Below, in pieces: positions 15,024 to 64,000 of a stretch of DNA of 64,000 nt. Both the position numbers and the translations under genes were made by a program. The stretch's first letter is position 1; each line of letters opens with the position of its first letter. The notes under the pieces were generated by a model. That model was not told where the DNA came from. It searched no databases and worked only from the letters and a program-made list of their open reading frames with translations. Source of the stretch: Gemmatimonadota bacterium (GTDB lineage Bacteria > Gemmatimonadota > Gemmatimonadetes > Palauibacterales > KS3-K002); assembly GCA_041617795.1 (NCBI GenBank), contig JBFJOD010000002.1, positions 1,189 through 65,188 of the forward strand. Reading direction: 5' to 3'.

Positions 15024-15032
15024 CGCGTTTTC

Positions 15033-33386: not shown

Positions 33387-33404
33387 TCCAGCCTCCCGGT
33401 CAGC

Positions 33405-46210: not shown

Positions 46211-46250
46211 TCTTGCTTAGGTATGTGAGGGCGGGTAAGTTTGTGTGCTT

Positions 46251-46952: not shown

Positions 46953-47563
46953 TCGATCTGACACCACTCGATGTGCGAAAGAAGAAGGGTGACTTCCGAC
47001 GCACCGTTCGAGGATATGATCCAGAACTTGTCGACGACTTTCTCGACATGGTTGCCGAGCGGTTGGAAGAACTCGTCAAGCAAAACGTGGCGTTGAGCGA
47101 ACGGGCGGAGCACTTGCAAGAGCAAGTCGCTTCATACCGGCAGCGTGAGAAGGCGCTCAACGAAGCGTTGGTCACGGCCCAGCAACTGCGATCGGAAGCC
47201 CAGGCACAGGCCGATCGTGAAGCGGAATTGGTGCGCCGTGAAGCACAGAGCCAGGCGGATCGAATCATCGACGATGGCCAGCGCTCGTTTCGCCAGCTGG
47301 CGCGGGAGATCGAAGCGCTCCACACCCGTAGACGGCAGTTCCTCCACACCTTCAGAACCACACTGGAGAGGTACATGTCTGAGCTCGAGGTCGAAGAGAC
47401 CCGGTTAGACGATACGCTGGTACCGCATCCAGAGCCGCTGCGCTCGAGCCCCCCGGCCCCGGACGAAGCGAGTGAGCCGGAACCGGGTCCAGCCGGCGAA
47501 CCCAAACAGGGCGATTGGCTTTCCTCCCTCGTCACGGAGGGCGAGCAAGAGGAAAGCAGCTGA
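46949..47563 (+). CDS. divIVA: DivIVA domain-containing protein
   Basis: MIDLTPLDVRKKKGDFRRTVRGYDPELVDDFLDMV is the conserved DivIVA N-terminal lipid-binding domain, followed by coiled-coil sequence. It overlaps the yggS stop by 4 nt. Confidence 0.85.
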   Translation: MIDLTPLDVRKKKGDFRRTVRGYDPELVDDFLDMVAERLEELVKQNVALSERAEHLQEQVASYRQREKALNEALVTAQQLRSEAQAQADREAELVRREAQSQADRIIDDGQRSFRQLAREIEALHTRRRQFLHTFRTTLERYMSELEVEETRLDDTLVPHPEPLRSSPPAPDEASEPEPGPAGEPKQGDWLSSLVTEGEQEESS

Positions 47564-48402
47564 TGAACCATCCCAGCGCGGACGATCTTGTTGGTCGCGT
47601 TCGTGCCGCAACGAAAACGATTCGCACGTACACGGCGACGGAGCCGCGCCTTGGCATCATCCTCGGAACGGGGTTGGGGGCTCTGGCCGAAGAGATCGAG
47701 ACGGAGGCAGAGATTCCTTACGATAGGATACCGGATTTCCCTGTGCCGACGGTAGAAACCCACAGCGGTCGTCTTCTCTTGGGCCGGCTCTCCGGCCTAC
47801 CGGTCGTGGCCATGCAGGGCAGGTTCCATCGCTACGAGGGCTACTCACTGCAGCAAGTGACGTTCCCGGTCAGGGTAATGCGGGATCTGGGCGCTGAGAT
47901 CCTGGCGGTTTCCAACGCCTGCGGCGGAATGAACCCGATGTGGGACGTTGGCGATCTGATGTTGATTGCCGACCATATCAACCTGCTCGGCGACAATCCG
48001 TTGATCGGTCCCAACCCGGATCAATTGGGTCCACGTTTCCCGGACATGTCGGAGCCCTACGATCTGCGGTTGCAGCGCCTGGCCCTCGAGGTTGCGCAGG
48101 AGCGGCGGATCACTCTGCGCCGGGGTGTCTACGTGGCGGTACCCGGGCCGAACTTGGAAACGCGCGCAGAATACCGATTCCTGAGAATGATCGGTGCAGA
48201 TGTGGTGGGGATGTCCACCGTGCCCGAGGTCATCGTCGCGGTTCACAGCGGCATGAGAGTGTTGGGTGTTTCGATTATCACCGACAGCTGTCTGCCGGAT
48301 GCACTTAAGCCTGCAAGCGTTGAAGAGATCATACGAGTGGCGAGCGAATCCGAGCCGAAGCTGACTTCGCTGATTAAGCATGTAGTGGCGCGTTTGAGTT
48401 GA
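47563..48402 (+). CDS. purine-nucleoside phosphorylase (trimeric, inosine/guanosine type)
   Basis: I trimmed the ORF to the ATG at 47563, which overlaps the divIVA stop (TGATG). GIILGTGLG, HSGRLLLGRL, VAMQGRFHRYEGY, VSNACGGMNP and VGMSTVPE are present. Confidence 0.9.
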   Translation: MNHPSADDLVGRVRAATKTIRTYTATEPRLGIILGTGLGALAEEIETEAEIPYDRIPDFPVPTVETHSGRLLLGRLSGLPVVAMQGRFHRYEGYSLQQVTFPVRVMRDLGAEILAVSNACGGMNPMWDVGDLMLIADHINLLGDNPLIGPNPDQLGPRFPDMSEPYDLRLQRLALEVAQERRITLRRGVYVAVPGPNLETRAEYRFLRMIGADVVGMSTVPEVIVAVHSGMRVLGVSIITDSCLPDALKPASVEEIIRVASESEPKLTSLIKHVVARLS

Positions 48403-48412
48403 AGTCTGGGCT

Positions 48413-51400: not shown

Positions 51401-51568
51401 CCTGAAGTCGCTTCGGCGGCTGAGGCTCACCGCGAGTATATCGCCAGCGAAGTGTTGGCGGTCGAGGTTGAGGTTGGCCCGGAGCCACCGACGGCTGACG
51501 GGTATGAGCACACGCGCGAGATTCAGCTGGATGGTCGCGAGGCGGTGATTGGCGTACAGATCAGCTGA
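48413..51568 (+). CDS. ileS: isoleucine--tRNA ligase
   Basis: 1051 aa. The HIGH motif PTANGRPGIHH and the KMSKS motif VKMSKSRGN are present, with a CP1 editing domain and the long C-terminal extension of type 2 IleRS. Confidence 0.97.
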   Translation: MSKDLYRPIPDSPTELEESVLERWESEDTFVRSLELTKDGKPFVFFEGPPTANGRPGIHHVLSRTIKDTFCRYQAMQGRCVTRIAGWDTHGLPVEVEAEKALGISGKPEIEKIGVERFTQVSRDHIFTYKEEWEKLSLRIGFWLDYSRAYITCSPEYIESVWWALAEFHEKGLLYRGHKVVPYCPRCGTGLSSHEVAQGYEEVSEPAVTVKFPVEDQPGVFLLAWTTTPWTLPGNVALAVSPMVAYIKARVGDEVYYLAERLADEVLGDGYEVLETMPGGKLDGLRYEPPFPFLQQAVGSENGWYVATADFVTADEGTGIVHTAVMYGQDDYELGMKLGLPAHHLVDEEGRFTDEVTPWSGRFVKDVDPLIIEALAESGRLIKAENHLHTYPFCWRCSTPLLYYARDSWYLRTTAVKDELLANNASVGWQPPEIGRGRMAEWLANNVDWALSRDRYWGTPLPVWVCDKVESHIEVIGSFGQLAERANIAIDEGFDPHKPFIDTVSWGCAQCDGEMRRAPEVIDAWFDSGSMPFAQWHYPMENRTDFDEHFPADFIAEGVDQTRGWFYSLLAISTVLFGRPPYRNVVVNDLVLDADGVKMSKSRGNVVDPWAAIGEFGADAIRYYLLSASSPWIPKRHDPKAIGEVRRKFFGTLLATYRFFELYANLEKWKPAKRPSSARRSVTDRWLLSQLDGLIEACREDLDSYDVTHAVRRIGEFVIDDLSNWYVRRSRARFWGTRSANLETMDAAFSTLWEALVTVSRLLAPVAPFVSDWIHRELTGGTSVHLTRYPKPEGRREPALDEAMQLGRQLAGLGRAARDAAGIRVRQPLGRLLAVVPRGGLARLPEDVLEVVRDELNVRDIQFVDDPSDLVRYRAEPNFAILGPQFGARAQAVAVAIRGLASEELAVWRKRGGELGLEVAGGRVDVPEEGLAVLEEAAEGLVVQSDAGVLVGLDTVVTQDLREEGTARELVNRIQRLRREAGLQLDDRIRLGIFGAPEVASAAEAHREYIASEVLAVEVEVGPEPPTADGYEHTREIQLDGREAVIGVQIS

Positions 51569-51616
51569 CTGCCGGTCGTAGATCTAACGCGGCCGCCTGA
51601 CAATTCGAGGACGAGG

Positions 51617-52003
51617 ATGCCACTCAAAAAGAAAGATCTGGCGCATTTCGAGCAGCGTCTGCTAGATGAGCGACAGAAGATCGTCAAGCAGCTGGCCCAG
51701 TTTGACGAGTCGTTTTCGGACACTCTGCAAGGGTCGGATGGCGACCTTTCCGCCTACAGCTTCCACATGGCGGACCAGGGGACCGATGCGATGGAGCGCG
51801 AGAAAGCCTTCCTGTTCGCCAGCAAAGAGGGTCGCTTCCTGTTCCACATCGATCAGGCGCTCCGCAGGCTCTACAAGACTCCCGACAAGTACGGGATCTG
51901 TGAAGAGTGTGGAGTGGAAATAGGGTACGAGCGGCTCGACGCGTTGCCACACGCGAGATTGTGCATCAAGTGCAAGGAGCGCGAGGAGAACAACGGTGCC
52001 TAG
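51617..52003 (+). CDS. TraR/DksA family zinc-finger transcriptional regulator
   Basis: 128 aa with a coiled-coil N-terminus and a C4 zinc finger CEECGVEIGYERLDALPHARLCIKCK. Confidence 0.85.
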   Translation: MPLKKKDLAHFEQRLLDERQKIVKQLAQFDESFSDTLQGSDGDLSAYSFHMADQGTDAMEREKAFLFASKEGRFLFHIDQALRRLYKTPDKYGICEECGVEIGYERLDALPHARLCIKCKEREENNGA

Positions 52004-52574
52004 CGGCTACCCGCAAGCCGGTGAGGTCGGTCGGGCGGAGGAGTTAGCGGGCAGCGACGCGTCGGTACGGGGCAAGCTCGGCAGTTTTGCTGGTACGGCC
52101 GCAGTAGTTCTTGCCTTGGATATGTTCACCAAGCTCTTGGTCCAGCAAACACTTCACGTTTACGAATCGATTTCGGTCTTCGGTAATTTCTTCCGACTGA
52201 CCTACATCCATAATCCCGGTGCGGCTTTCGGGCTCCACCTTGGACCTCATTCGCGCTTTCTCTTCCTGACTTTGGCGCTGGTCGCGCTCGCCGTGCTCAT
52301 CGTGATGTATCGGCACACACCAGCTGAGGATCGGCTCAGGCTGTTCGCGATTGGAGCGATCGCCGGAGGTGCCTTGGGCAATGTGATCGATCGGATCCGC
52401 TCTGCAGCAGGCGTCGTCGATTTCCTCGATTTTGGCGTCGGCGGCCTCCGCTGGCCCGTTTTCAACATCGCGGACACCGCGGTAACGATTGGCGCGTTGC
52501 TTCTGCTCACCTCTCTGTGGGCCGAGGATCAACGTCGTGACCGCGAGGAAAGTGGAGAAACTTCAAGCAGCTGA
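51996..52574 (+). CDS. lspA: lipoprotein signal peptidase II
   Basis: GTG start overlapping the upstream stop. LDMFTKLLV, NPGAAFG, GGALGNVIDR and FNIADTAVTIG are conserved LspA motifs, including the catalytic Asp residues. Confidence 0.9.
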   Translation: MPSGYPQAGEVGRAEELAGSDASVRGKLGSFAGTAAVVLALDMFTKLLVQQTLHVYESISVFGNFFRLTYIHNPGAAFGLHLGPHSRFLFLTLALVALAVLIVMYRHTPAEDRLRLFAIGAIAGGALGNVIDRIRSAAGVVDFLDFGVGGLRWPVFNIADTAVTIGALLLLTSLWAEDQRRDREESGETSSS

Positions 52575-53520
52575 CGGGAGCATCAGCTACCGGATCAGGG
52601 TCACCGAGCAGTCGGACCAACGGCTCGACCGCTACCTCGCAAAACAACTCTCAGTCTCACGCTCGCAAATCGCGGCCTGGATCGACGCAGGCCGCGTTCT
52701 GATCGAGGACACGGTACCCAAGAAAAGCTACATCCCCGAGGTCGACGACCTGATCATCGTCGATGTTCCACCGCCTACGCCGTCTACCCTCGTTGCGGAA
52801 GAGATAGAGGTTGATGTTGTCTATGAGGACGAGGGGTTCCTGGTCGTCAATAAGCCCGCGGGCATGGTGGTGCACCCTGCACCCGGCCACTCGGGGGGCA
52901 CTCTGGTGAACGCCCTCCTGTACCGGGTCGGTCGTCTATCGACGATCGGGGGACCTAGCCGGCCCGGTATCGTGCATCGACTCGACAAAGACACTTCTGG
53001 CCTTGTTATCGCGGCGAAGGATGAGAAGGTTCACCGGCGGCTGGCCGACGCGCTGGCGCGTCGCGCGATCACGCGTCGATATCTGGCTGCTTGCTGGGGA
53101 CATCTGCCCGAAGACCATTTCGTGGTCGAGGCCGACATGGGCCGGCATCGCCGTGATCGGAAGCGAATGGCCGTCGTCCCCGGAAGTCGGCCGGCTACCA
53201 CGGAGATCGAGCGATTGGAGCGCTGGGTGGCAGCGGACCTGCTCAAAATCCACCTCCATACCGGCCGGACCCACCAAATCCGCGTCCACTTGAGCCATAT
53301 CGGCCATCCAGTCGTCGGCGACCGTCAGTATGGCTCCGGCTGGGAACGCGGCCTCGAGGGCCGCTGGCCGCGGGAGCTGGCTCGACGTGTTCCTCGGCAG
53401 TTCCTGCATGCCGCCGAACTCCGCTTCGCCCATCCCGTTACGGGAGAGGAACTGGCGCTTTCGGCCGCCCTGCCAGAGGATCTGGCCGCCGCGGCCGAAT
53501 GGGCGCGCCGGACAAGTTGA
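52537..53520 (+). CDS. rluD: RluA-family 23S rRNA pseudouridine synthase (RluD-like)
   Basis: An N-terminal S4-like segment (RLDRYLAKQLSVSRSQIAAWIDAGRVLIED) and the catalytic motif HRLDKDTSGLVIAAK are present. The start is ambiguous (GTG at 52537 or 52552) because the long ORF overlaps lspA. Confidence 0.88.
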   Translation: MTARKVEKLQAADGSISYRIRVTEQSDQRLDRYLAKQLSVSRSQIAAWIDAGRVLIEDTVPKKSYIPEVDDLIIVDVPPPTPSTLVAEEIEVDVVYEDEGFLVVNKPAGMVVHPAPGHSGGTLVNALLYRVGRLSTIGGPSRPGIVHRLDKDTSGLVIAAKDEKVHRRLADALARRAITRRYLAACWGHLPEDHFVVEADMGRHRRDRKRMAVVPGSRPATTEIERLERWVAADLLKIHLHTGRTHQIRVHLSHIGHPVVGDRQYGSGWERGLEGRWPRELARRVPRQFLHAAELRFAHPVTGEELALSAALPEDLAAAAEWARRTS

Positions 53521-53545
53521 CCGGTACCTTAGTCGTTATTATACT
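53517..53545 (+). promoter_or_regulatory. sigma-70-like promoter in front of the che-mgl gene run
   Basis: TTGACC (53517-53522), a 17-nt spacer, then TATACT (53540-53545). It sits in a locally AT-rich stretch about 70 nt upstream of the cheW start. Confidence 0.45.
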
Positions 53546-53614
53546 TGTACTTCCGCGTGTGACTGCACCGCGCTTCCTCCCCCATATCCCAAACTGATTC
53601 GAGGCTTGTGCCCC

Positions 53615-54106
53615 GTGTCGCTTTCCAACGAGCGTCAGCTGATTGTCGAGGTCGGCGACTCGCTGTTCGCCGCCACCGCCGCCGCCGTTCGCGAGGTGGT
53701 TGAGCCGCTGGAGGCGACGCCCGTGCCCGGGGCTGTGCCAGAGGTTCTCGGACTGATCAATCTGCGTGGCTCCGTGATGCTAGCCGCACAGTTGGGTCGA
53801 CTTCTGGGCCTCGAGTCGCAAATGCACCGGGAATCCGCATTCGTCGTCGTCGAGCAGGGTGAAGGGCGCTTGGCCCTTGAAGTAGACCGCCTGGTAGGTG
53901 TGGCTGACTGCTCGCCGTCCGAGCTAGATGTTGACAGTGACCAGCTCGCGGCGCTCGGTGCTAGTGGTGTTGTGGTGGGTGTAAGCCGTTATGGTGAACG
54001 TCCGTGTTTCCGTTTGGACATTCCGCGCATCTTCGAACGCTTGCTCGATCCTGTTGCCGACCATGACGCGGGCGCGGATTCAAGTTCAACAAGAAGGCGG
54101 GTGTAA
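53615..54106 (+). CDS. cheW: chemotaxis coupling protein CheW
   Basis: I trimmed the ORF to the GTG at 53615 (the in-frame TTG at 53606 is an alternative). LIVEVGDSLFAATAAAVREVV...VPEVLGLINLRGSVMLAAQLGRLLG is the CheW-like domain pattern. Confidence 0.85.
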   Translation: MSLSNERQLIVEVGDSLFAATAAAVREVVEPLEATPVPGAVPEVLGLINLRGSVMLAAQLGRLLGLESQMHRESAFVVVEQGEGRLALEVDRLVGVADCSPSELDVDSDQLAALGASGVVVGVSRYGERPCFRLDIPRIFERLLDPVADHDAGADSSSTRRRV

Positions 54107-54108
54107 GA

Positions 54109-54471
54109 ATGAGCCGCACTGTTCTGATCGTTGACGACGCGATCTTCATGCGAACCATGATCGCTGACATCTTGAAGGGAGCGGGGTTTGAGATTGTGGG
54201 GGAAGCGTCATCAGGCGTTGAGGCCGTACAGAGATACCGTGAGCTGAAGCCAGATCTTGTCACGATGGATATCGTCATGCCGGATATGGGTGGCATCGAT
54301 GCGGTTCGCGAGATAGTCAAGGAGGATCCCAAGGCACGCATCCTGATGTGCAGCGCAATGGGCCAGCAGGGTCTCGTGGTAGAAGCAATTCAAGCCGGCG
54401 CTCGCGATTTTGTGGTCAAGCCCTTCCAACCTTCGCGCGTGCTTGAAGCCGTGCAACGTTTGCTGGGATGA
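54109..54471 (+). CDS. cheY: chemotaxis response regulator CheY
   Basis: 120 aa, single REC domain. LIVDDA, the phospho-acceptor in LVTMDIVMPDMGG, CSAMG and VVKPF are all canonical. Confidence 0.93.
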   Translation: MSRTVLIVDDAIFMRTMIADILKGAGFEIVGEASSGVEAVQRYRELKPDLVTMDIVMPDMGGIDAVREIVKEDPKARILMCSAMGQQGLVVEAIQAGARDFVVKPFQPSRVLEAVQRLLG

Positions 54472-56129
54472 CTCATCAGCAGCAGCGGTATGCCGAACTG
54501 TTCGCCGCGGAAGCGCGCGAGCACCTTGCCGAACTGAGCAGCAGTTTGGTCGAGCTCGACAAACAGCCCGGCAACCGTAGCCTGCTGGATTCAGTCTTTC
54601 GTTCGGTTCATACGATCAAGGGGATGGCGGCAGCGATGGGTTATGAGGTCGTGACCCGCTTGTCCCACAACGCCGAATCGGTACTCGCTGAGTTGCGGGA
54701 AAACCGGAGGCAGGTTGACTCAGCGACCATCGATCTATTGCTGGAAGCCTTTGATCAGCTGGGCGGGGCCGTGGAAGCGACTGTGGCTGGTGTGGAACCA
54801 CCCGATCCGGCTGTCACTATCGAGAGGCTGGTGCTGTGGCGCCGGGCGGGAGAGCGCGCGGCGGCGGCTGCCGCGCCAGATACATCGATCACCGCGCCTC
54901 TAGAGAAGAGCGCGCCTAAGCATCGACCTAAAGATCCCGGGCGTCTGCGCGTCGACGTGCGCAAGCTTGACGCTCTGATGAACCTGACGGGTGAACTGAC
55001 CATCCTGCGAGGTCGCCTCTTGGCTCTAACCGCCGATCACAGTTCGGAGCCGCTCCAGGAAGCGATGGAACAGGCGAGCCGGCTCATCGCTGAATTGCAG
55101 CTCCAGGTCATTGAGAGCAGAATGGAGCCGGTCTCCGAGCTTTTCGATCGCTTCCCGCGGCTGGTCCGCGACGCTGCACGCACGGCGGGTAAAGAGGTGG
55201 AGTTGTCGATCAGCGGTCGCGACCTTGAGCTTGATCGCACGCTGTTGAATGCGATTGCCGACCCCCTGGTTCACTTGCTGCGAAATGCTGTCGATCACGG
55301 GATCGAGCCGCCGGCCGAACGGGAAGGGAGCGGCAAACCTCCTGCGGGCCGGATCGGGCTTGCGGCGCGTCGTGAACGCTCTCGTGTCGTAATCGAGGTG
55401 ACAGACGATGGGCGCGGCATAAACTTGGAGACGGTTGCGGAAAAGGCACATGGCGCTGGGATGATAGAAGCAGATGCCAAACCCCAGGATCTGGAGCTCT
55501 TCCGGATTCTGTCCCGCCCGGGCTTTTCGACGGCTGACAGTGTAACGACGCTATCGGGACGTGGCGTGGGGCTCAATGTGGTTGAGGAGTGCGTCAAAGC
55601 TTTGGGCGGTTCGGTCGAGTTGACGACTGACCGCAATGTCGGCACCCGGCTTCGATTAGAGTTGCCAGCAACCCTGGCCATCGTGCGGGCACTGATCGTT
55701 GAGGTAGCAGGTCAAGTCTATGCGTTGCCGACGACCTTCACACGCGAGAGCTTCGAACTGCCGGGGCCCGCGGTGGAGCGTGCCCACGGGCGCGAGTGGG
55801 TGAATTGGCGCGGATCAAGGCTCCCGCTGACGCGGCTGCGGCCTCTGTTCGCGGCGGGCAAGAATAGTGACAATCGTGACGATGGTGCGATGAGTCGGGA
55901 CTGCGACGATCACGTATTGCGCGTCGTGGCGCTCGAATTTGGAGCGACGCGCACGGCAATCTCGGTCGATAAGTTCGTTGGGGAAGAGGAAGTCGTCATT
56001 AAGCCGTTTGATTTACCTCGTGGGGCTATTCCCGCATTTTCAGGTGCAACGGTCCGACCCGACGGACGACCTGCCCTTGTAATCGACGTTGGAAGTCTGG
56101 CGCAGCGAATCTCAACCCTCAACCTCTGA
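54468..56129 (+). CDS. cheA: chemotaxis histidine kinase CheA (P1-P3-P4-P5, no P2)
   Basis: 553 aa. Hpt site FRSVHTIKGMAAAMG, dimerisation region RVDVRKLDALMNLTGEL, N-box LLRNAVDHGIE, G1 DDGRGIN, G2 SGRGVGLNVV and a C-terminal CheW-like domain are present. Confidence 0.93.
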   Translation: MTHQQQRYAELFAAEAREHLAELSSSLVELDKQPGNRSLLDSVFRSVHTIKGMAAAMGYEVVTRLSHNAESVLAELRENRRQVDSATIDLLLEAFDQLGGAVEATVAGVEPPDPAVTIERLVLWRRAGERAAAAAAPDTSITAPLEKSAPKHRPKDPGRLRVDVRKLDALMNLTGELTILRGRLLALTADHSSEPLQEAMEQASRLIAELQLQVIESRMEPVSELFDRFPRLVRDAARTAGKEVELSISGRDLELDRTLLNAIADPLVHLLRNAVDHGIEPPAEREGSGKPPAGRIGLAARRERSRVVIEVTDDGRGINLETVAEKAHGAGMIEADAKPQDLELFRILSRPGFSTADSVTTLSGRGVGLNVVEECVKALGGSVELTTDRNVGTRLRLELPATLAIVRALIVEVAGQVYALPTTFTRESFELPGPAVERAHGREWVNWRGSRLPLTRLRPLFAAGKNSDNRDDGAMSRDCDDHVLRVVALEFGATRTAISVDKFVGEEEVVIKPFDLPRGAIPAFSGATVRPDGRPALVIDVGSLAQRISTLNL

Positions 56130-56138
56130 TATCCTGAA

Positions 56139-56765
56139 TTGAATCGGCCTCGAGAGCTTAGGGATCTAGAGCTTGACGCGCTTCGCGAGGTAGCCAACAT
56201 CGGCGCCGGCCACGCGGCCACAGCCCTCAGCCAACTGACCCATTGCCGAGTCATGATCGATGTGCCGAATGTCAAGATCTGTTCGGTCGCGGAAGCTGCT
56301 ACCTCTGTCGGCAGTCGCACCAGTGTCGTCGCCGCTGTGCTCATGCATGTACTGGGTGATCTGACCGGGCGCAGTCTGCTGATATTTGAGAAGGATTGCG
56401 CACTCAGGTTGGCAGACTTGTTGCTGAACAGGACTCCGGGGTTGACCAAGGTGTTTGCCGAACTGGAGCAGTCCGCGGTCAAGGAAACAGCGAACATCTT
56501 AACTGGCGCTTACCTGAACGGTCTGTCCGACTTGCTGGGTTTGATGTTGATCCCATCCGTTCCCAGCCTGGCGATTGATGTATGTGCGGCCATTCTCTCG
56601 ACCACTTATCTCGGTCAGGGAGATGAGCGCAGCCAAGTCATCATTCTCGACACCCGGTTCCGGTTCGACCCGGGTGATGAAGGGATGTCAGGCCACTTCG
56701 TGCTGCTACCTGATCCTGCGAGTCTGCAGGTTATGCTGAAGACGTTACGGCTCAAAAGCGTATGA
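56139..56765 (+). CDS. cheC: CheC-family CheY-P phosphatase
   Basis: TTG start. Two copies of the ExxN active-site motif are present (LDALREVANIGAGHAATALS and EQSAVKETANILTGAYLN). Confidence 0.85.
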   Translation: MNRPRELRDLELDALREVANIGAGHAATALSQLTHCRVMIDVPNVKICSVAEAATSVGSRTSVVAAVLMHVLGDLTGRSLLIFEKDCALRLADLLLNRTPGLTKVFAELEQSAVKETANILTGAYLNGLSDLLGLMLIPSVPSLAIDVCAAILSTTYLGQGDERSQVIILDTRFRFDPGDEGMSGHFVLLPDPASLQVMLKTLRLKSV

Positions 56766-59467
56766 AGGGTACGGCTCATTCTGAGGCTGATCTCCGCGTT
56801 CTCCGGGCGCTGGCACAGCGGATCGATCCGGGGGATGCCGGGGCCTGCAATAATCTCGGAGTAGTCTATCACCAGAAGGGGCTGTTCGAAGAGGCGATAG
56901 AACAGTTTCGCCGGGCGCTGGCCATCGATGGCAAGATGGAGGTGGCACGCCGAAACCTCGAAATCGCTTACCATCAGACCGGCCATTACGATCGACGCAT
57001 AGCGGAACTGATAGAAAAGCTCCGAGTTGATCCACGGGACTCAGAATCACAGTTCGAGTTGGCGGAAGCGTACGAAAACGCGGGGCGAATCGATGAGGCG
57101 ATCGTTGAATACGAGAAATTAGTCAGGAAGCGACCCGACGATGTGCGCCTACTCGTAAAGCTTGGCACCGCCGAGAAAAGGCGCGGCGAATTGAAGCGAG
57201 CGATCCGCTGGTACGAAATGGCCTGCCAGATCGCACCTGACCGACCGGTGATCCACTATTCACTGGGTGAAATCCTCTATAACCAGGGGATGAATGATGA
57301 GGCGGTATCGCACCTAAGACGAGCCCTGAGCTTGAATTCGTCGTTTGCCGAAGCCCATCACTTGTTGAGCTTCGTTTACGGCGACATCGGCGAGGCGGAC
57401 AAGGCGGCGGAGCACGCCAAGCGCGCCGCAACGCTTAATCCCGCGGCGGCCAAGGTTCAAACGAACTTATCGCTCGACCGCTACAGCGCCGCTCGCTATG
57501 TCGAACTCACAGGTAGTGCGCCCTCACCAACGGCGGACAGTCAGCAGGCGTTTGCGCACTACACACTTGGCATCGCCTTCCGGGCACGAGGTTTTTACGA
57601 GGAGGCTCGGCGTGAATTCGCTCGGGGGCGTGAGGTGGGCGAGGATGCTTCTCTGATCGACCAGGCCGAGGCCGAGCTAGCCTTGCTGGATGGAGATGCA
57701 GAAGGGGCGCTGGTCCGCTATGACGCTTTGTTGGCACTGACCAGTGAAAGCCCCAAGCTATGGAACGAGCGTGGCGTAACGTTACATCAGGTCGGCCGTC
57801 TCGAGGAAGCCGAACAGAGCTATCGCCGTGCACTCAAGATCGATGGCAAGTATGCGCTGGCCTGGAATAACGTCGGCGTGCTGAGCGTGCACGGCGGTGA
57901 TTTGCCAGAGGGTGAAGCTGCGTTGCAGCGGGCATTGGAGGTGCGTCCGGATCTAGATGACGCCAGCTTCAACCTCGGGCTGCTCTGGATCAAGACGAAT
58001 CGGGCCGAACGCAGCCTGCGGCTTTACCGAGAGATGCTGCTGGCCGACTCAGGACGTGCGGATGCGTGGACCGGTTTGGGTTCGGCATTGATGGCGATGG
58101 ATCGCACGGCCGATGCTCGCAACGCCTTCGCGCGAGCGGTTGAAGTGGATCCGAGTTTCGCACCGGCTCGCTACAACTTGAGTTTCTTGTTGGCGCGTTT
58201 GGGCGATCACGCCGGCGCCTTGCGGGAAACCAAGATCGCGTTAGAGCTCGATCCATATTACACAGCTCCCCGCTACAAGCTATCGATCGATTTGCAGTAC
58301 GAGGGCGGAGATGTTTGGGCTCCGGAATTGGCCGGACCGGAACGCATTCAGGCCAAGGACCCTGGCGTACGCGATTTCGAGTACAATCCGGCGGAACTGG
58401 AGGCGGTATTCAAGGAGCTGGAACCGTCGAGTCCGATGGAAGCAGAGGCGCCTGCCGTCGCCGCGGACTTGTTCCGGTTGGCTCGCGACTACCTGGCCAA
58501 CGGGTTGTACGATCGCGCGCTATCAGAGGCGGTGCACGCGGTACGGGCAGGCGGTGATGCTGCCGAGGGAGCCCTGATCATCGGCGAGCTTTACCAGCAA
58601 CGTGGGCTATACGGTGAGGCGCTGGAGCGCTTCCAGGAGGCGCGAGAGCTGCGGCCGGAGGATCCCGAAGTGCTGGCGGGTCTGGCGCGTTGCTTGCTGA
58701 GACTCGACCGGCCCGATACGGCGTGTGAAGTGGCCGAAGCGCTGGAGCCGATGGCAGCGGGTGATGTGTCGCACCTGCTGATCGTTGGAGAGACGTACAC
58801 GCTTGCAGGAAATGCGAAGCGAGCGTTGGCGGTGTTGGATCTGGCGGTCGACGAGGCGCCACGCGATCCGGTTGTGCACAGGCAAATCGCCCGGGCGGCG
58901 CTGTCGATTGGCAACCGACACCGCGCCAAGCAGGCCTACCGAGTAGCGATCGCGGAAGATCCAGACTTCACGGCGGCGCGTGTAGAGCTTGGGAGAATCT
59001 TGCTGGATGAGGGTGCCCACAGTGAGGCCGAAAATGAGATTCGGCAAGCACTGGAGCTCATGCCTACCTATGCGGAAGCGACCTTCGTAATGGCTCAGGT
59101 CCTTAGCCGGCAAGGGAAGGTTCGTGATACTATTAACCTGCTGGCTGATTTTCTCGAGGTAGAGCCGTATAATCTGGACGCTCTGAGTTTGTTAGCCGAA
59201 GCGCTCGTCAGCGCTGGACTGAAGCGAGAGGCGGAACGCGCGTACGAACGTCTTCTGAGATACGATCACGAGCGGCCGGCGGACCTGTTGAAGTTGGGAG
59301 AATTAGTGGCTGAAGCTGGCCGCTACCGAGAGGCGCTGGGCTACTGGCGACGCATAGTCTCACTGGCACCTGACAGCGAATTCGCGTCAAAAGCCAGGAG
59401 CCTGGCCAAGGCGGCTTTGGGACTGGAGCAAGCACCCGAGGGTCGGGCGACTGGGAGTGGTGGCTGA
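56762..59467 (+). CDS. large tetratricopeptide repeat (TPR) protein
   Basis: 901 aa, essentially all TPR-like repeats (recurring A..Y..AL...P....A...LG motifs). It overlaps the cheC stop by 4 nt. Confidence 0.85.
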   Translation: MKGTAHSEADLRVLRALAQRIDPGDAGACNNLGVVYHQKGLFEEAIEQFRRALAIDGKMEVARRNLEIAYHQTGHYDRRIAELIEKLRVDPRDSESQFELAEAYENAGRIDEAIVEYEKLVRKRPDDVRLLVKLGTAEKRRGELKRAIRWYEMACQIAPDRPVIHYSLGEILYNQGMNDEAVSHLRRALSLNSSFAEAHHLLSFVYGDIGEADKAAEHAKRAATLNPAAAKVQTNLSLDRYSAARYVELTGSAPSPTADSQQAFAHYTLGIAFRARGFYEEARREFARGREVGEDASLIDQAEAELALLDGDAEGALVRYDALLALTSESPKLWNERGVTLHQVGRLEEAEQSYRRALKIDGKYALAWNNVGVLSVHGGDLPEGEAALQRALEVRPDLDDASFNLGLLWIKTNRAERSLRLYREMLLADSGRADAWTGLGSALMAMDRTADARNAFARAVEVDPSFAPARYNLSFLLARLGDHAGALRETKIALELDPYYTAPRYKLSIDLQYEGGDVWAPELAGPERIQAKDPGVRDFEYNPAELEAVFKELEPSSPMEAEAPAVAADLFRLARDYLANGLYDRALSEAVHAVRAGGDAAEGALIIGELYQQRGLYGEALERFQEARELRPEDPEVLAGLARCLLRLDRPDTACEVAEALEPMAAGDVSHLLIVGETYTLAGNAKRALAVLDLAVDEAPRDPVVHRQIARAALSIGNRHRAKQAYRVAIAEDPDFTAARVELGRILLDEGAHSEAENEIRQALELMPTYAEATFVMAQVLSRQGKVRDTINLLADFLEVEPYNLDALSLLAEALVSAGLKREAERAYERLLRYDHERPADLLKLGELVAEAGRYREALGYWRRIVSLAPDSEFASKARSLAKAALGLEQAPEGRATGSGG

Positions 59468-60603
59468 TGCCGATCGAAGGCTCGTTACGTGAGTTTGCGC
59501 TGCACGACATTTTCCAGCTTCTACATATGTCGCGGAAGTCGGGAGAGCTGCGGCTGGTGCGCGAACCTGCTGGTACCAGTGGAGTGGTCGTTTTCAGTGG
59601 CGGTGCGGTAGTAGGTGCGACTCTTGGTGAAGCCTCACCGCGGCTGGGTTACATGTTGCTGAATGCGGGGAAGATCACCGAGGCCGACCTCTTCCGAGCG
59701 GGTGAGTTGCATGCCGAGGATCCCGGACGATCCTGGGGCGAGGTCTTCCGCTCGCTCGGAGTAGTCGAACCGGACGAGCTGAAGAAGTATCTGAAGTTCC
59801 AAGTCGAGGAGTTCGTGTACGAATTCCTGGATTGGCATGACGGTCACTTCTTGTTCGGAGAGCGCCCCGTCGCCGATGATGAGTGCCTAGCCTGGATTCC
59901 AGTTGAGTCTTTACTGATGGAAGGAGCGCGACGTGCCGATGAGTTGTCAGCGCTGGGCTCGCCGGTCGAGAGTGCTGAGGCTGTGCCACGATTGGCGCAA
60001 GGGGCGGCCGCGGATGGTGGATTGCTGGATCTGACGCCGGAGGAATGGGAGGTGTTGGGACGGGTCGATGGTTCAAGTGATTTGAAGGCGATTGCCTGGA
60101 CCTTGGGTCGAAGCGAATTCGACGTTAGCAAAATAGTCTCGACATTGTCGAACAAGGGGTTGGTGGAGATCGGCTCGCAGAAGGAAGTGGCGCGCACCAA
60201 ACCGCCGCATGAGTTGGCTTTGGATCTTGCCGGGGAATTGATCGAGCGAGGGGAACTGGAACTGGCCAGCAGCAAGATCAGCTCGGTCCTCAAGGCGCAT
60301 GAAGACGAACCGCGGGCGCATTATATGGCCGCCCGAGTCCTGGAAAGGAAAGGCGACCTTCGCGCCGCCGAACAAGGCTACGAGAACGCGTTGAGTTTTG
60401 ATCCCCTGGCCAAGGAGGCCAGGCAGCGCCTCGGGTTGGTGCGTCTGAAGCTTGGAAACATCGACGGCGCGGCTCGGGCATGGCGAGCCTATCTGAAGAT
60501 GGTACCCGATACGGTAGAGCGGCGGCGCGTCCAACGAGCGCTTAGCGCTGTACGTGAACTTCAAATTGTTGTGAGCGAGTTCGATGGGCGCGAGCGGCCG
60601 TAG
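59467..60603 (+). CDS. DUF4388 (PATAN) domain protein with a central wHTH-like segment and C-terminal TPR
   Basis: 378 aa. MPIEGSLREFALHDIFQLLHMSRKSGELRL is the typical DUF4388 N-terminus. The middle LDLTPEEWEVLGRVDGSSDLKAIAWTLGRSEFDVSKIVSTLSNKGLVEI looks like a winged helix similar to DUF742/CvnC. TPR-like repeats form the C-terminus. Confidence 0.75.
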   Translation: MPIEGSLREFALHDIFQLLHMSRKSGELRLVREPAGTSGVVVFSGGAVVGATLGEASPRLGYMLLNAGKITEADLFRAGELHAEDPGRSWGEVFRSLGVVEPDELKKYLKFQVEEFVYEFLDWHDGHFLFGERPVADDECLAWIPVESLLMEGARRADELSALGSPVESAEAVPRLAQGAAADGGLLDLTPEEWEVLGRVDGSSDLKAIAWTLGRSEFDVSKIVSTLSNKGLVEIGSQKEVARTKPPHELALDLAGELIERGELELASSKISSVLKAHEDEPRAHYMAARVLERKGDLRAAEQGYENALSFDPLAKEARQRLGLVRLKLGNIDGAARAWRAYLKMVPDTVERRRVQRALSAVRELQIVVSEFDGRERP

Positions 60604-61387
60604 ATCCCTGCAGGAACTGACGGCCGAAGTCGCCACGAATCCCAACTCGACGGCGTTCGTTGAGCTTGCGGCAGCGTACCGCGAACGCGGTGATCTCGAA
60701 CGCGCGCTGCGTTTGTGTTTGCGGGGCTTGGAGCGCCACCCAACTCACGTTGAGGCTCACTTCGAGCTGGGGCGTATCTACGAGGCACGAGGCGACCGGG
60801 AACTGGCGCTCGACGAGTGGGGAATCGTCCGCCAACTCGCGCCGGATCATCTGCCATCAAGAATCGCTCTGGTGGGGCTGTACCTGGACGAAGCGAGGTT
60901 GGCGGATGCGGAAGTAGAATTGCGTGAAGCGCAGTCGGTCGCAGCCAGCCACCCGACGGTCAAACAACTTCGGCAGCGCCTGGAGGCGGCCAGCCGGGAT
61001 GGACGCGATAGTGAGGAACCACCGGCTCTCGATCCGTTCGATTCGCTCGCCCGAGAATTCCCTGGGCTTATTGGAGTGCTGCTGGCTGATCAGGAAGGCC
61101 AGTTACTCAAAGGCCGAATGACAAAGCGAGGTGCCGAGTCAGACCGCATGTTGGCTGTAACACTAAGTGGCGCGCGCAAGGAAGCGGACCGAGTGGCAAA
61201 TTATCTGGGGTTGGGTGACCTGAAAGGCATCGTGATCGAGAGCTCGGCCACTCGGCTGACGGTGGCGCCCGTTCAGAACCGCCTGGTAATCGTTGCTATG
61301 GCCAGTCACGTGCCGGCCGGACGCTCAGCGCTCGCCGTGCGACGGGCCGAGGAACTTGCCGAAGTGCAAAGTGGTGACGGGCGATGA
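60584..61387 (+). CDS. TPR-Roadblock/LC7 fusion protein
   Basis: 267 aa. The N-terminus has TPR repeats (AFVELAAAYRERGDLERALRLCLRGLERHPTHVEAHFELGRIYEARGD). The C-terminal approximately 110 aa (GLIGVLLADQEGQLLKG...LKGIVIESSATRLTVAPV..RLVIVAMAS) has the Roadblock/LC7 pattern. It overlaps the upstream gene by 20 nt. Confidence 0.7.
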   Translation: MGASGRRSLQELTAEVATNPNSTAFVELAAAYRERGDLERALRLCLRGLERHPTHVEAHFELGRIYEARGDRELALDEWGIVRQLAPDHLPSRIALVGLYLDEARLADAEVELREAQSVAASHPTVKQLRQRLEAASRDGRDSEEPPALDPFDSLAREFPGLIGVLLADQEGQLLKGRMTKRGAESDRMLAVTLSGARKEADRVANYLGLGDLKGIVIESSATRLTVAPVQNRLVIVAMASHVPAGRSALAVRRAEELAEVQSGDGR

Positions 61388-61743
61388 GCACGGCGTACGA
61401 TGCTTTGCTGTCGGGACTGATGCGCACGGCGGGAGTTCGTGGAGCGCTCGTCGTTGCTGTGCCTGATGGTTTGGTGGTGGACGGCCGAGTCCATGTCGGG
61501 GTAAGAAGTGACGCGGTCGCCGCACTAGCCGCCTCACTCTACCGTCGTGCCTGCCGGGCCACCGGGGCGCGCGAGGGACAGTCGAGATTCGTCGAACTAG
61601 AGGCTGATCGTGGGCGAATCCTCATCGCTGGCAGGGAGGACCTGGCATTGATGGCAGTGATGGAGCGGCGGGCCAACGTAGGCCAGGTCCGCCTGGCGGT
61701 TCTCCGCGCCGCTGATAGTCTGCTGGCGACGGGGCAGGGGTGA
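61384..61743 (+). CDS. Roadblock/LC7 domain protein
   Basis: 119 aa. GVRGALVVAVPDGLVVDG...FVELEADRGRILIAGREDLALMAVMERRANVGQVRL is the Roadblock/LC7 (MglB superfamily) pattern. It overlaps the upstream gene by 4 nt. Confidence 0.75.
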   Translation: MSTAYDALLSGLMRTAGVRGALVVAVPDGLVVDGRVHVGVRSDAVAALAASLYRRACRATGAREGQSRFVELEADRGRILIAGREDLALMAVMERRANVGQVRLAVLRAADSLLATGQG

Positions 61744-61747
61744 ACCG

Positions 61748-62236
61748 ATGGATCGCCTGAGCCTCCAAGAGATTCAGCGAGCCTTCGTCGAGCCGCTCGA
61801 GGATTTCGTTCGTGAGGCCGGCGTGCGAATGGCGGTGCTGATCAATCGTGGCGGACAGGTTCTGGCTCAATCCGGGTTCGAGAGATTGTACGACCTTGTT
61901 GGAGTCGCCTCACTTGCGGCCGGCATCAACGCATCGAGCCGGGCTTTGGCCCGGCAGCTCGGTGAGGATCAATTCGAACACCTTCACCATGCAGGTGAGG
62001 CTCGCCAACTCTTTCTTGGGCACTTCGAATCAGCTGCAGGCCAGTTGATGCTGATTACCGTGTTCGATGAAAACTCATCAATCGGGTTGGTCAGATTGTT
62101 CTTCGAGGCGTTTGTTCACAGGATACAGCGACTTCCATCCATGGACACAGCGCGTCGGTCGGTGAGCCCGAAGGATTTTGAGAGCGAACTTGAGACGAGT
62201 CTCGATCGATTCTTCAAAGACTTGGTAGGCGGCTGA
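61748..62236 (+). CDS. mglB: MglB, Roadblock-type GTPase-activating protein of MglA
   Basis: 162 aa. It aligns closely by eye with my recollection of M. xanthus MglB (AVLINRGGQVLAQSG...SLAAGINASSRALARQLGEDQFEHLHHAGE...LITVFDENSSIGLVRL versus VFLVDKNGQLISSAG...SLTAGNVAAMGGLAKLIGENEFPNQFHEGA...VVIFDNRTSLGLVRL). It lies immediately upstream of mglA. Confidence 0.85.
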   Translation: MDRLSLQEIQRAFVEPLEDFVREAGVRMAVLINRGGQVLAQSGFERLYDLVGVASLAAGINASSRALARQLGEDQFEHLHHAGEARQLFLGHFESAAGQLMLITVFDENSSIGLVRLFFEAFVHRIQRLPSMDTARRSVSPKDFESELETSLDRFFKDLVGG

Positions 62237-62238
62237 TC

Positions 62239-62856
62239 ATGTCGCTCGTCAATTATGCAACTCGCGAGATCACCTGCAAGATCGTCTACTACGGGCCGGG
62301 CCGGTCAGGTAAAACGACGAACCTGCAGTACATACACAGCCGGGTGCCATGGGATCGCAAGGGCGAGATGGTGTCTCTGGCGACCGATGCGGATCGCACG
62401 CTGTTCTTTGACTTCTTGCCGTTGGAGCTTGGACGGATTTCCGGTTTTACGACTCGCTTCCAACTGTACACCGTACCCGGCCAAGTGTACTACAACGCCA
62501 CACGCAAGCTCGTGTTGCAGGGAGCAGACGGCGTCGTGTTTGTGGCGGACAGCCAGAGGTCGCAGCTCGAGTCTGACATCGAGTCTTTCCGAAATCTTCA
62601 GGAGAATCTGCTCGAGCGCAGCATTGACATCCGGGATATTCCAGTCGTGATGCAGTACAACAAGAGGGATTTACCCAACGTTCTCGATATGGAACGATTG
62701 GAGGAGGATTTAAATTTCAGGAATGTTCCGAGTTTCGCGGCATCAGCCCTGCTCGGTGAGGGGGTCTTCGACACGCTGCGAGCCGCCAGTGAAGGCGTCC
62801 TGAAGAAGCTAGCCAGAAAGCTGGAGACCTCCGCTGATGTGGCCGCAGGAGGTTGA
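62239..62856 (+). CDS. mglA: Ras-like small GTPase MglA
   Basis: 205 aa with high similarity along its whole length to M. xanthus MglA as I recall it. Shared segments are NY..REI.CKIVYYGPG..GKTTNLQYI, DRTLFFDFLPL (intrinsic Arg finger), RF.LYTVPGQV.Y (catalytic Gln), DGVVFVADSQ and QYNKRDLPN. Confidence 0.95.
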   Translation: MSLVNYATREITCKIVYYGPGRSGKTTNLQYIHSRVPWDRKGEMVSLATDADRTLFFDFLPLELGRISGFTTRFQLYTVPGQVYYNATRKLVLQGADGVVFVADSQRSQLESDIESFRNLQENLLERSIDIRDIPVVMQYNKRDLPNVLDMERLEEDLNFRNVPSFAASALLGEGVFDTLRAASEGVLKKLARKLETSADVAAGG

Positions 62857-62858
62857 GG

Positions 62859-64000
62859 TTGAAGAGCAGTATTGATCCGGGACTGACGTTCTCGAATTTC
62901 GTGGTCGGCTCGGAGAACCGTCTAGCCTGGGAAGCCGCACGTACCGCCGCAGAGTCACCCGGCTCTGCCTACAACCCACTATTCATCTACAGCGATACTG
63001 GTCTGGGAAAGACGCACCTACTTGTTGCGATCGCCAACCGTGCCCAGGAGCTTCAGCCCGATATTCGAGTCGTCTATACGCCGCTCGAACAGCTGATCCG
63101 CGATTTCGCCAGCGCTTCGGAAGCGGAGTCGTTATTTCAACAGGCCGACATCCTGTTGATAGATGACCTCCAGTTCGTTGGCGAGCATGCTCAAAGCCAG
63201 CGTGTGCTGTTCCACGTGCTCGACCGTCTCTTCATGGCGGGAAAGCAAGTCGCACTGGCATGCGACAGGCCGCCACTCGAGCTCGGAGAGCTCGATGACC
63301 GCTTGCTCTCGCGCTTCAGTGGCGGACTGGTAGTCGACATCGGGCGACCGCTATTGGATACGCGCCGCTCGATCCTGGAGCTGCGCATAGCTGCCATTCA
63401 GGCGAATCTCAGACCGGAGGTGATCGATGAGATCGCCCGACTGGCCATCGAAAATGTGCGACAGCTCAAGGGCGCGCTCAATCGCGTGCTGGTGGCCCAG
63501 AAGAGCGAGGGACGCGAGATACAGGCCGACGAGGTCGACCGCTTGCTGGCCGATGTGGTGGGCGATGGAAACCTGCCCTGGCTGACTGAGGCACGCAGCC
63601 GGGCCGCCGGCGAGTTCGAGGAATTTCTCACCGACGTATCCTCTGCGGTGGAAGAGGCCCTGGGCACACCAAAGTGGCGGGAGGATGTGGCCCGCGCGAT
63701 CCTGAAATGGGAGGCCGAGGGTTACTCGACCAGCCGGTTGGCTGAGTTCCTGGATCAGGGAAGTCGTGAGGATGCCGAGCGGGTCATTCAGGCATACGAG
63801 CGTGATATCTCAATGTTGAACACCATTACGGACGAGTTGAATCGCTTGAACGCCACGCTGCCGAGGGAACTTTCACTAAAGGATCCAGACCGGCTCAGTG
63901 ACCTGCGCCAATTCTTGGAAAAGGCGCGCCGCACGGATCTCGCGTTGGATGAGTTCTTCCTGGACGAAGAGAAAGTGGTCTGGGATTGGCCTGCCTTTGA
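62859..64000 (+). CDS. DnaA/Hda-like AAA+ ATPase with a non-DnaA C-terminal region, 3' partial
   Basis: I translated this by hand. The frame is open from TTG 62859 (AGGAGG 7 nt upstream; an in-frame TTG at 62853 is the alternative) to the window end (380 codons). LTFSNFVVGSENRLAWEAA...YNPLFIYSDTGLGKTHLLVAIAN (Walker A), ILLIDDLQF (Walker B), DRLLSRFSGGLVVDI (box VII Arg) and NVRQLKGALNRV (sensor 2) match DnaA domain III. It has no DnaA domain I/II, and the 150 aa after the AAA+ module do not resemble DnaA domain IV. Confidence 0.8.
   Translation, partial: MKSSIDPGLTFSNFVVGSENRLAWEAARTAAESPGSAYNPLFIYSDTGLGKTHLLVAIANRAQELQPDIRVVYTPLEQLIRDFASASEAESLFQQADILLIDDLQFVGEHAQSQRVLFHVLDRLFMAGKQVALACDRPPLELGELDDRLLSRFSGGLVVDIGRPLLDTRRSILELRIAAIQANLRPEVIDEIARLAIENVRQLKGALNRVLVAQKSEGREIQADEVDRLLADVVGDGNLPWLTEARSRAAGEFEEFLTDVSSAVEEALGTPKWREDVARAILKWEAEGYSTSRLAEFLDQGSREDAERVIQAYERDISMLNTITDELNRLNATLPRELSLKDPDRLSDLRQFLEKARRTDLALDEFFLDEEKVVWDWPAF

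Follow-up and report, generated by a model that had tools for sequence, protein, structure and literature searches.

Roadblock proteins are regulators of small GTPases. In Myxococcus xanthus, the Roadblock protein MglB serves as the GTPase-activating protein (GAP) of the polarity GTPase MglA, MglC is a Roadblock adaptor, and signals of the Frz chemosensory pathway reach the Mgl module through single-domain receivers. Even in Myxococcus, where these genes are spread over separate loci and the connectors came to light singly, the chemosensory route to the MglA switch is still debated. In Vibrio and Rhodobacter, the positioning ATPases ParC/ParP and PpfA are nested in che operons, and Makarova et al. 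reportedly described PATAN-Roadblock-MglA gene neighbourhoods in 2006. From Gemmatimonadota, a budding-prone, widespread, and little-studied soil and sediment phylum, we describe here a gene cluster in the last part of a 64,000-nucleotide stretch of DNA (GenBank assembly GCA_041617795.1, contig JBFJOD010000002.1, positions 1,189 to 65,188; the whole stretch is called the window below), in which chemosensory (che) genes and genes for MglA and MglB lie in one run. The cluster appears to encode a complete chemosensory pathway (outer genes) that is wired through CheY to a nested MglA/MglB polarity module (inner genes), a reading to which we give a little more than even weight.

According to the survey of Wuichet and Sogaard-Andersen in 2015 (PMC4316618), mglA is not located near its signalling partners in M. 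xanthus and Bdellovibrio, and the neighbourhoods of Group-1 mglA genes are variable, with occasional PATAN genes adjoining mglA/mglB. The MglA of Gemmatimonadetes was placed in Group 1, and G. aurantiaca GAU_1115 was listed as 'MglB>MglA>' in Table S2; che genes, a tetratricopeptide repeat (TPR) gene of ~900 amino acids (aa), or DnaA-like genes are not mentioned there. Previous work on cyanobacteria showed that PatA-type regulators are PATAN-receiver fusions encoded in che-like clusters, and that PATAN binds PilB1/PilC (10.1101/2021.06.11.447907).

In the window, the run consists of eleven consecutive open reading frames (ORFs) on the + strand, the product of each scoring above the curated Pfam cut-off:

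53615-54106, + strand: cheW, 163 aa, GTG start (Pfam CheW, E 1e-23)
54109-54471, + strand: cheY, single-domain receiver of 120 aa (Pfam Response_reg)
54468-56129, + strand: cheA, 553 aa (Pfam Hpt, dimerisation, HATPase, and CheW-like domains)
56139-56765, + strand: cheC, CheC-type CheY-P phosphatase of 208 aa (Pfam CheC)
56762-59467, + strand: TPR gene, 901 aa, all-TPR (Pfam TPR families)
59467-60603, + strand: PATAN (DUF4388) and TPR gene, 378 aa, with a helical middle region (Pfam DUF4388, E 3.5e-27)
60584-61387, + strand: TPR and Roadblock/LC7 gene, 267 aa (Pfam TPR families; Robl_LC7 26.8 bits, cut-off 23)
61384-61743, + strand: stand-alone Roadblock/LC7 gene, 119 aa (Pfam Robl_LC7)
61748-62236, + strand: MglB-type Roadblock gene, 162 aa (match to Thermus thermophilus MglB 1j3w)
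62239-62856, + strand: mglA, Group-1 Ras-like GTPase of 205 aa (Pfam Arf-like small GTPase)
62859-64000, + strand, cut at the window end: gene for a DnaA-derived AAA+ ATPase (Pfam Bac_DnaA, E 5e-47)

ORF listing and translation reproduced the gene positions of the original prediction, Pfam supported its domain calls, and the ten junctions were found to be exact (+2, -4, +9, -4, -1, -20, -4, +4, +2, and +2 nucleotides (nt)). No convincing internal terminator was found, with nine weak matches against 9.3 expected. The proposals that these genes form an eleven-gene operon and a self-contained core without adaptation enzymes did not stand, as base 64000 of the window falls inside the DnaA-like gene, and the run goes on in relatives with CheR, CheD, CheB, and a second CheW. 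The continuation is seen in locus L007, the complete chromosome of a metagenome-assembled genome (MAG; CP070815.1):

L007, after the 392-aa DnaA-like gene: a 543-aa PATAN-PATAN-TPR gene, cheR, cheD, cheB, and a double-CheW gene

These genes share the strand of the DnaA-like gene, and their junctions overlap or are close to zero; their CheB consists of a receiver and a methylesterase, and an unrelated MA-family peptidase gene follows the double-CheW gene. When the L007 proteins were used as tblastn queries, the same continuation was found in nearly all loci long enough, both in Gemmatimonadales and in Longimicrobiales. In ~60 related species genomes, the run goes on with the double-PATAN/TPR gene, cheR, cheD, cheB, and often the double-cheW gene, and independent gene calls with precomputed Pfam matches agree. 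The earlier statement that no gene for a methyl-accepting chemotaxis protein (MCP), CheR, CheB, or CheD is in or near the cluster thus holds inside the window, while for cheR, cheB, and cheD the "near" is an artefact, because the window breaks off within the eleventh gene. The full unit probably comprises ~16-17 genes, of which the window would hold the first two thirds. Its outer genes are the two che halves, and its inner genes encode MglA, MglB, two more Roadblock proteins, and the TPR, PATAN/TPR, and AAA+ proteins.

Related loci were collected by scanning a genome collection with a profile of the PATAN protein, which yielded 545 relatives; the best 80 species-level loci were analysed, and all of them belong to Gemmatimonadota. 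PATAN homologues at 60-70% identity came from Gemmatimonadota MAGs, and those at ~40% from Longimicrobiales. The one-strand order rluD, cheW, cheY, cheA, cheC, TPR, PATAN, TPR/Roadblock, Roadblock, mglB, mglA, DnaA-like was found in essentially all 80 loci and is conserved across Gemmatimonadales and Longimicrobiales, with identities across loci of 64-90% for MglA and 34-70% for the PATAN protein. The che-mgl linkage, whose absence from relatives would have refuted the original prediction, is decisively upheld, the order being present in essentially all of the ~70 loci long enough, and it recurs outside Gemmatimonadota. Packing is tight as well: the medians of thirteen junctions from CheW to CheD range from -17 to +14 nt (46-84 loci, extrapolated), and the median from CheB to the double-CheW gene is -34 nt (30 loci); the CheD-CheB junction was left out because the start of the CheB query was misplaced. 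Thirty-three loci span the whole region, and all of them keep the inner module. Both che halves are present in 31 of the 33 and neither in the other two (L020 and L033), while a locus with one half only was never seen (0/33). In a search with MglA, the best 120 homologues all came from this same cluster.

To reach relatives beyond the phylum, representatives at 50% identity were searched with a profile, and cluster and context look-ups were then made. Their gene content is as follows:

L085/L086, candidate division TA06: only five genes, for a receiver, TPR (881 aa), PATAN/TPR, TPR/Roadblock, and Roadblock
L087, Candidatus Edwardsbacteria: TPR, PATAN, TPR/Roadblock, Roadblock, MglB, MglA (67% identity), then two inserted genes, DnaA-like, double-PATAN, CheR, CheD, and CheB; upstream part cut by the contig end
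L088: CheW, CheY (78% identity), CheA, CheC, TPR, PATAN, TPR/Roadblock, Roadblock, MglB, then two genes without assignment, MglA, CheR, CheD, CheB, and two MCP genes
L090, permuted order: CheA, CheC, MglB, tandem DnaA-like, double-PATAN, TPR, PATAN, TPR/Roadblock, Roadblock, MglA, CheR, CheD, and CheB
L089: receiver, TPR, PATAN, TPR-MglB fusion, MglA, double-PATAN, CheR, and CheW-like; no CheA, CheC, CheD, or CheB

L089 may represent a deep Gemmatimonadota-like lineage, because it has the upstream ileS-lspA-rluD synteny of the window and its IleS is 54% identical to the window IleS. A gene for a type IX secretion system (T9SS) C-terminal tail (Por_Secre_tail/CHU_C) lies at 8023-8913 of L087, between mglA and the DnaA-like gene, and T9SS-tail genes flank the TA06 module too.

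The loci without CheA are informative on the role of CheY. In L020 and L033, the inner stretch that begins with the TPR gene and ends with the double-PATAN gene is retained, and in L020 the TPR gene is immediately preceded by a cheY that is intact and phosphorylatable, with a short cheW remnant also present. In the other CheA-less lineages, L089 and TA06, the ~900-aa TPR gene likewise has a CheY-like gene immediately in front of it. The phospho-acceptor Asp of these two receivers is lost, being replaced by Glu in L089 (6941-7330) and by Gly in TA06 (L085, 6985-7350), and the acidic pocket is also altered in both; all CheA-linked receiver copies, plus that of L020, keep the Asp. By its residues, the receiver of L085 and L089 is a predicted pseudo-receiver that has been retained as a part of the module. 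The constant place of the receiver beside the TPR gene, together with the loss of the Asp in two CheA-less lineages and its preservation in CheA-linked copies, suggests a tie of the receiver to the inner module as well as to CheA. As CheY seems to depend on CheA where CheA is present, and stays with the TPR, PATAN, and Roadblock genes where it is absent, CheY is singled out as the candidate bridge. The predicted contact of CheY with the TPR/PATAN/Roadblock proteins thus gained indirect support from gene adjacency.

The same variants bear on whether the arrangement could be a frozen accident of operon history without any functional link. Such an accident would agree with the unlinked frz and mgl loci of M. 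xanthus (PMC4316618) and with L020, L033, and TA06, where the two gene sets are found apart, but it is hard to reconcile with a cluster that is conserved over Gemmatimonadales and Longimicrobiales, whose start and stop codons overlap throughout, whose part list recurs in Edwardsbacteria (upstream cut), L088, and L090, and whose parts are retained after rearrangement in L090. Moreover, the che halves are present or lost together. We consider this explanation highly improbable; the all-or-none che halves, the persistence through rearrangement, the receiver-TPR adjacency, and the decay of the Asp favour functional coupling over chance adjacency.

The GTPase of the inner module matched M. xanthus MglA (6hjh/5ymx, E 4e-75) and T. 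thermophilus MglA (3t12, E 1e-68), in both cases over residues 1-192. Alignment with M. xanthus MglA located the P-loop, the DRTLFFDF arginine finger, (Y)TVPGQ, and NKRD. The features of Group 1, namely Thr replacing the G3 Asp (TxxGQ), an intrinsic arginine finger, and an adjacent mglB, are all present, and by these motifs the protein is a true Group-1 MglA. The MglB-type Roadblock gene ends 2 nt upstream of mglA; its product matched T. thermophilus MglB (1j3w) with E 8e-13, and the MglB model was its sole match in NCBIfam, although the score, 59.9 bits, falls short of the cut-off of 200. It is presumed to be the GAP of MglA. The 119-aa Roadblock protein resembles stand-alone Roadblock proteins (PDB 7f8f and 7f8m, E 5e-5), and the 901-aa TPR protein is a candidate scaffold and CheY partner. 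Together with the DnaA-derived ATPase, this ~900-aa TPR protein is one of two uncharacterised integral parts of the cluster.

The PATAN domain of the 378-aa protein contains an MshEN-like four-helix insertion. A confident AlphaFold2 model of this protein was obtained with a predicted local distance difference test score (pLDDT) of 88.7, and a PDB fold search with the model gave matches dominated by TPR, none of them informative on the PATAN domain. The insertion (59641-59802, residues 59-112) carries a tandem pair of motifs like the 24-residue motif of the c-di-GMP-binding MshEN domain (PMC5013675). The two copies in the window protein have 3 and 2 mismatches to a relaxed MshEN motif, and those in the PATAN orthologues of Longimicrobiales and in PATAN2 of L007 (14565-16196) have 1-2; the NCBIfam model NF053729 scored 26 bits on the 378-aa protein against a cut-off of 38. 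Based on this resemblance, the PATAN insertions may add an input from cyclic di-GMP (c-di-GMP). A gene for a receiver-DUF3369-GGDEF diguanylate cyclase was also noted on the - strand at 28500-29957, ~24 kb upstream of the cluster, and may be compared with the c-di-GMP-binding-like PATAN motifs.

The product of the eleventh gene aligned with DnaA (PDB 8btg) with E 3e-47 over domain III only, and with TIGR00362 over positions 103-342 of 437 (244 bits, cut-off 344). Walker A and B, the arginine-finger box, and sensor II are kept, and DnaA domains I, II, and IV were not found in the PDB and NCBIfam comparisons. A replication initiator identity was ruled out, as the alignment is restricted to domain III, and the protein is, by these comparisons, a DnaA-derived AAA+ paralogue that retains the residues needed for ATP-dependent oligomerisation. 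In the clade of the window it is a single-domain protein of ~392 aa (full length taken from close relatives), while in most other lineages it is longer (590-660 aa) and its DnaA ATPase domain occurs twice, Walker A being degenerate in the second copy. Both forms share EK(V/L)xWxWP, a motif of the C-terminal tail. We suggest a role as a nucleotide-dependent scaffold or landmark. Tandem-domain genes are found at the following positions:

L039, 13465-15276: tandem-domain DnaA-like gene
L082, 10626-12395: tandem-domain DnaA-like gene
L090, 3588-5564: tandem-domain DnaA-like gene

With its P-loop GTPase and oligomerising AAA+ ATPase, the module has plausible machinery for positioning, and it might be proposed that it places or segregates the chemoreceptor array, all the more as its nesting inside a che cluster resembles that of parC/ppfA and a double-CheW protein is encoded in the cluster. 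However, array positioning fits poorly because the module outlasts the loss of the che genes: it is retained in L020 and L033 after both che halves have gone, and the five-gene core of TA06 has no che genes. MglA is also a true Group-1 orthologue of the motility-polarity GTPase. We regard array positioning as very unlikely.

Under the favoured wiring of CheY to the Mgl module, CheA would be controlled by receptors encoded elsewhere, or at the cluster end as in L088, and would phosphorylate CheY; CheC, CheD, CheR, and CheB would terminate and adapt the signal. CheY-P would then bind the TPR/PATAN/Roadblock scaffold, which would alter the activity or the location of the MglB-type GAP (or its guanine nucleotide exchange factor (GEF)-like activity) and thereby the placement of MglA-GTP in the cell. 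MglA-GTP would in turn switch the polarity of a polar machine, and the AAA+ protein may serve as an ATP-dependent oligomeric switch or landmark. We infer these protein-protein steps and the motility or polarity output from what is observed, namely genes, motifs, packing, conservation, and co-variation. The most probable target is the type IV pilus, given that cyanobacterial PATAN domains bind PilB/PilC; alternatively, the output may be a polar flagellum, or growth and budding at a pole.

The chemotaxis proteins themselves have intact catalytic motifs. CheY matched Thermotoga maritima CheY (1tmy) with E 2.6e-50 and is 62% identical to Bacillus subtilis CheY (reference sequence entered by hand); its acidic pocket, phospho-acceptor Asp, Ser/Thr position (Ser), and Lys are all intact in the translation, and its conservation is the highest in the cluster, with 74-94% identity across the phylum where complete. 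CheA matched T. maritima and E. coli CheA with E values from 1e-80 to 1e-83, and its phospho-histidine motif HTIKG is intact, as are the N, G1, and G2 boxes. The window CheA probably has no P2 domain, because only ~60 residues separate P1 from P3. This CheY-binding domain is missing in CheA of the window's clade (553 aa) and present in L082, L088, and L090 (610-646 aa). CheC matched T. maritima CheC (1xkr, E 9e-28), and both of its active-site motifs (D/S-x3-E-x2-N-x22-P) are intact. The best NCBIfam models were those for haloarchaeal CheY and CheA and CheC_Thtogales for CheC, all below their equivalog cut-offs. The gene set corresponds to that of the F1 class, a class reportedly included in the chemotaxis classification scheme of Wuichet and Zhulin in 2010, with CheW, CheY, CheA, and CheC in the window and CheR, CheD, and CheB only seen in relatives. 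By sequence, the che set appears Thermotoga/Bacillus-like, with cheC and cheD.

Several points weigh against a wiring of CheY to MglA and MglB. L033 keeps the inner module without any receiver gene. The loci were gathered through the PATAN protein and form a set of carriers, which gives no share of cluster-less genomes. The genes of the window organism past base 64000 are predicted from relatives, the closest informative one having a PATAN identity of 70%, and the 378-aa PATAN protein of the window carries a degenerate form of the MshEN-like motif. Pilus, flagellar, and MCP genes were found neither in the window nor within 10 kb of the Gemmatimonadota clusters, and the gene context therefore gives no hint of the output. 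In the window, the Pfam search covered 35 of the larger ORFs upstream, which are housekeeping and unrelated genes and include no MCP, flagellar, or pilus gene. For MCPs, six-frame tblastn of the window and 84 loci with a hand-entered signalling domain of E. coli Tsr as the query, run with no positive control, gave no match, and none was present in the precomputed Pfam tables of L082-L084, which carry more weight. Finally, the nearest matches of CheY, CheA, and CheC are flagellar-type proteins from Thermotoga, Bacillus, and haloarchaea, which means that CheY may also, or instead, drive a flagellar motor, and could act on FliM only.

The main rival explanation builds on this last point. It holds that the cluster is an ordinary flagellar che operon with a passenger module, in which the che genes would be the standard F1-like pathway of the phylum, CheY-P acts on the flagellar switch, and the inner genes, co-transcribed but not under the control of CheY, serve motility in parallel, e.g., in the choice of the pole for the flagellum or pili. 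Cultured Gemmatimonas species with a single polar flagellum (PMC9862903), the affinity of CheY and the Thermotoga/haloarchaeal type of CheC, CheD, and CheA, the position of cheY as the most conserved gene, and an inner module that outlives che loss in L020 and L033 are all consistent with it. Against it, three CheA-less lineages still have the receiver beside the TPR gene, where it degenerates instead of vanishing, the nesting is maintained in very distant lineages even after the order was reshuffled, and no flagellar gene is nearby in any locus examined. We judge the flagellar explanation unlikely as it stands, and it is compatible with the favoured wiring.

A broader interpretation, which we put forward tentatively and at somewhat below even weight, is that the cluster represents an ancient signalling unit common to Gemmatimonadota and other candidate phyla of the Fibrobacterota-Chlorobiota-Bacteroidota (FCB) group. 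In this unit, a TPR/PATAN/Roadblock complex would have a CheY-type receiver as its built-in input and, with a DnaA-derived AAA+ switch and perhaps c-di-GMP, would determine the nucleotide state of MglA or its location. If so, pili, gliding, or growth and budding at a pole may be the output, and not flagellar rotation.

Transcription of the cluster probably begins in the only real intergenic gap, which lies upstream of cheW (median 97 nt). Two features are found in this gap:

53517-53545, + strand: sigma-70-like promoter TTGACC-17-TATACT, its -35 hexamer overlapping the rluD stop codon
53546-53614, + strand: conserved 5' leader with a small hairpin right after the -10 and an invariant CCTCCCCC

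The promoter-like site was thus located where it had been reported. Such matches are not enriched in the region (two found, against 3.0 expected from shuffled sequence), so that the match alone says little and conservation is its sole support. Among 15 related species, the TTGAC of the -35 and the -10 positions vary little or not at all, and most of the rluD-cheW leader is nearly invariant. The leader CCTCCCCC is able to pair with the GAGGG ribosome-binding site, and the leader may therefore control translation; a search of the leader RNA against Rfam gave no match. The tight packing and the conserved leader fit a single transcription unit starting from cheW, with possible read-through from rluD. 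The genes upstream of the cluster (46245-53520) encode a YggS-like protein, DivIVA, purine nucleoside phosphorylase, IleS, a DksA-like zinc finger protein, LspA, and RluD, and this run resembles the division-cluster-distal region of Firmicutes.

Farther away in the window, an AcrB-type resistance-nodulation-division (RND) transporter gene (13533-16604) was found in two halves (Pfam positions 2-492 and 504-1020) separated by a single in-frame TGA at 15021-15023, and is followed by OEP and HlyD-type genes. Possible explanations are a pseudogene, an error of sequencing, a pump that is naturally split, and recoding of the stop. Two + strand ORFs, at 27089-28423 (444 aa) and 33214-34017 (267 aa), had no Pfam match at E <= 1e-5.

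With regard to known systems, the original prediction had called the cluster conservon-like. A device homologous to the actinobacterial conservons CvnA-D would likewise encode a kinase, Roadblock proteins, and an MglA-family GTPase together, but this analogy is loose. Unlike conservons, the cluster has a soluble CheA in place of a membrane HAMP kinase of the CvnA type, none of the eleven products matched DUF742/CvnC, and the GTPase belongs to Group 1 and not, as CvnD, to Group 2 (grouping from PMC4316618). Membership was rejected on these three features, and homology to conservons is hardly credible. The cluster resembles the ParC/ParP and PpfA systems in that an NTPase module is embedded among che genes, while the protein families are different and the inner module persists without che genes.

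Compared with the cyanobacterial Tax/Pix/Pil clusters, a che-like kinase pathway is again combined with PATAN domains, and the PATAN insertion found here resembles the N-terminus of PilB/MshE. Unlike in the PatA-type regulators, PATAN is fused to TPR in this cluster and the receiver is a separate 120-aa CheY; moreover, the cyanobacterial clusters have no counterpart of its MglA/MglB, Roadblock, and AAA+ ATPase genes. In the full-text literature searched, with many subscription papers outside its scope, no description was found of mglBA nested in a che cluster or of a DnaA-like partner. The component kinds are already known, whereas the che-mgl nesting and its phylum-wide conservation have not been described in this searchable literature. 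The cluster assigns a probable role to a large unannotated gene set conserved in the sampled Gemmatimonadota genomes, and its natural variants include co-lost che halves, a receiver that is kept but non-phosphorylatable, and a permuted order.

The closest comparison is with the Frz-Mgl system (MglA/MglB/RomR, with MglC and RomX/Y) of M. xanthus. Both have a Group-1 MglA with MglB; the extra Roadblock proteins of the cluster recall MglC, its single-domain receiver recalls the FrzX/FrzZ link, and its TPR protein recalls the MglA effector SgmX. Unlike Frz, the che genes of the cluster are Thermotoga/Bacillus-like with CheC and CheD, and CheA is without a fused receiver; no RomR or RomX was seen in the cluster, and the PATAN/TPR and DnaA-derived ATPase proteins are integral to it. 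The frz and mglBA loci of M. xanthus are unlinked (PMC4316618), which differs from the one gene run found here. The cluster therefore offers a short, explicit list of candidate connectors from chemosensing to polarity and, if our reading is true, lays out the wiring of chemosensory kinases to small-GTPase polarity gene by gene in a single locus.

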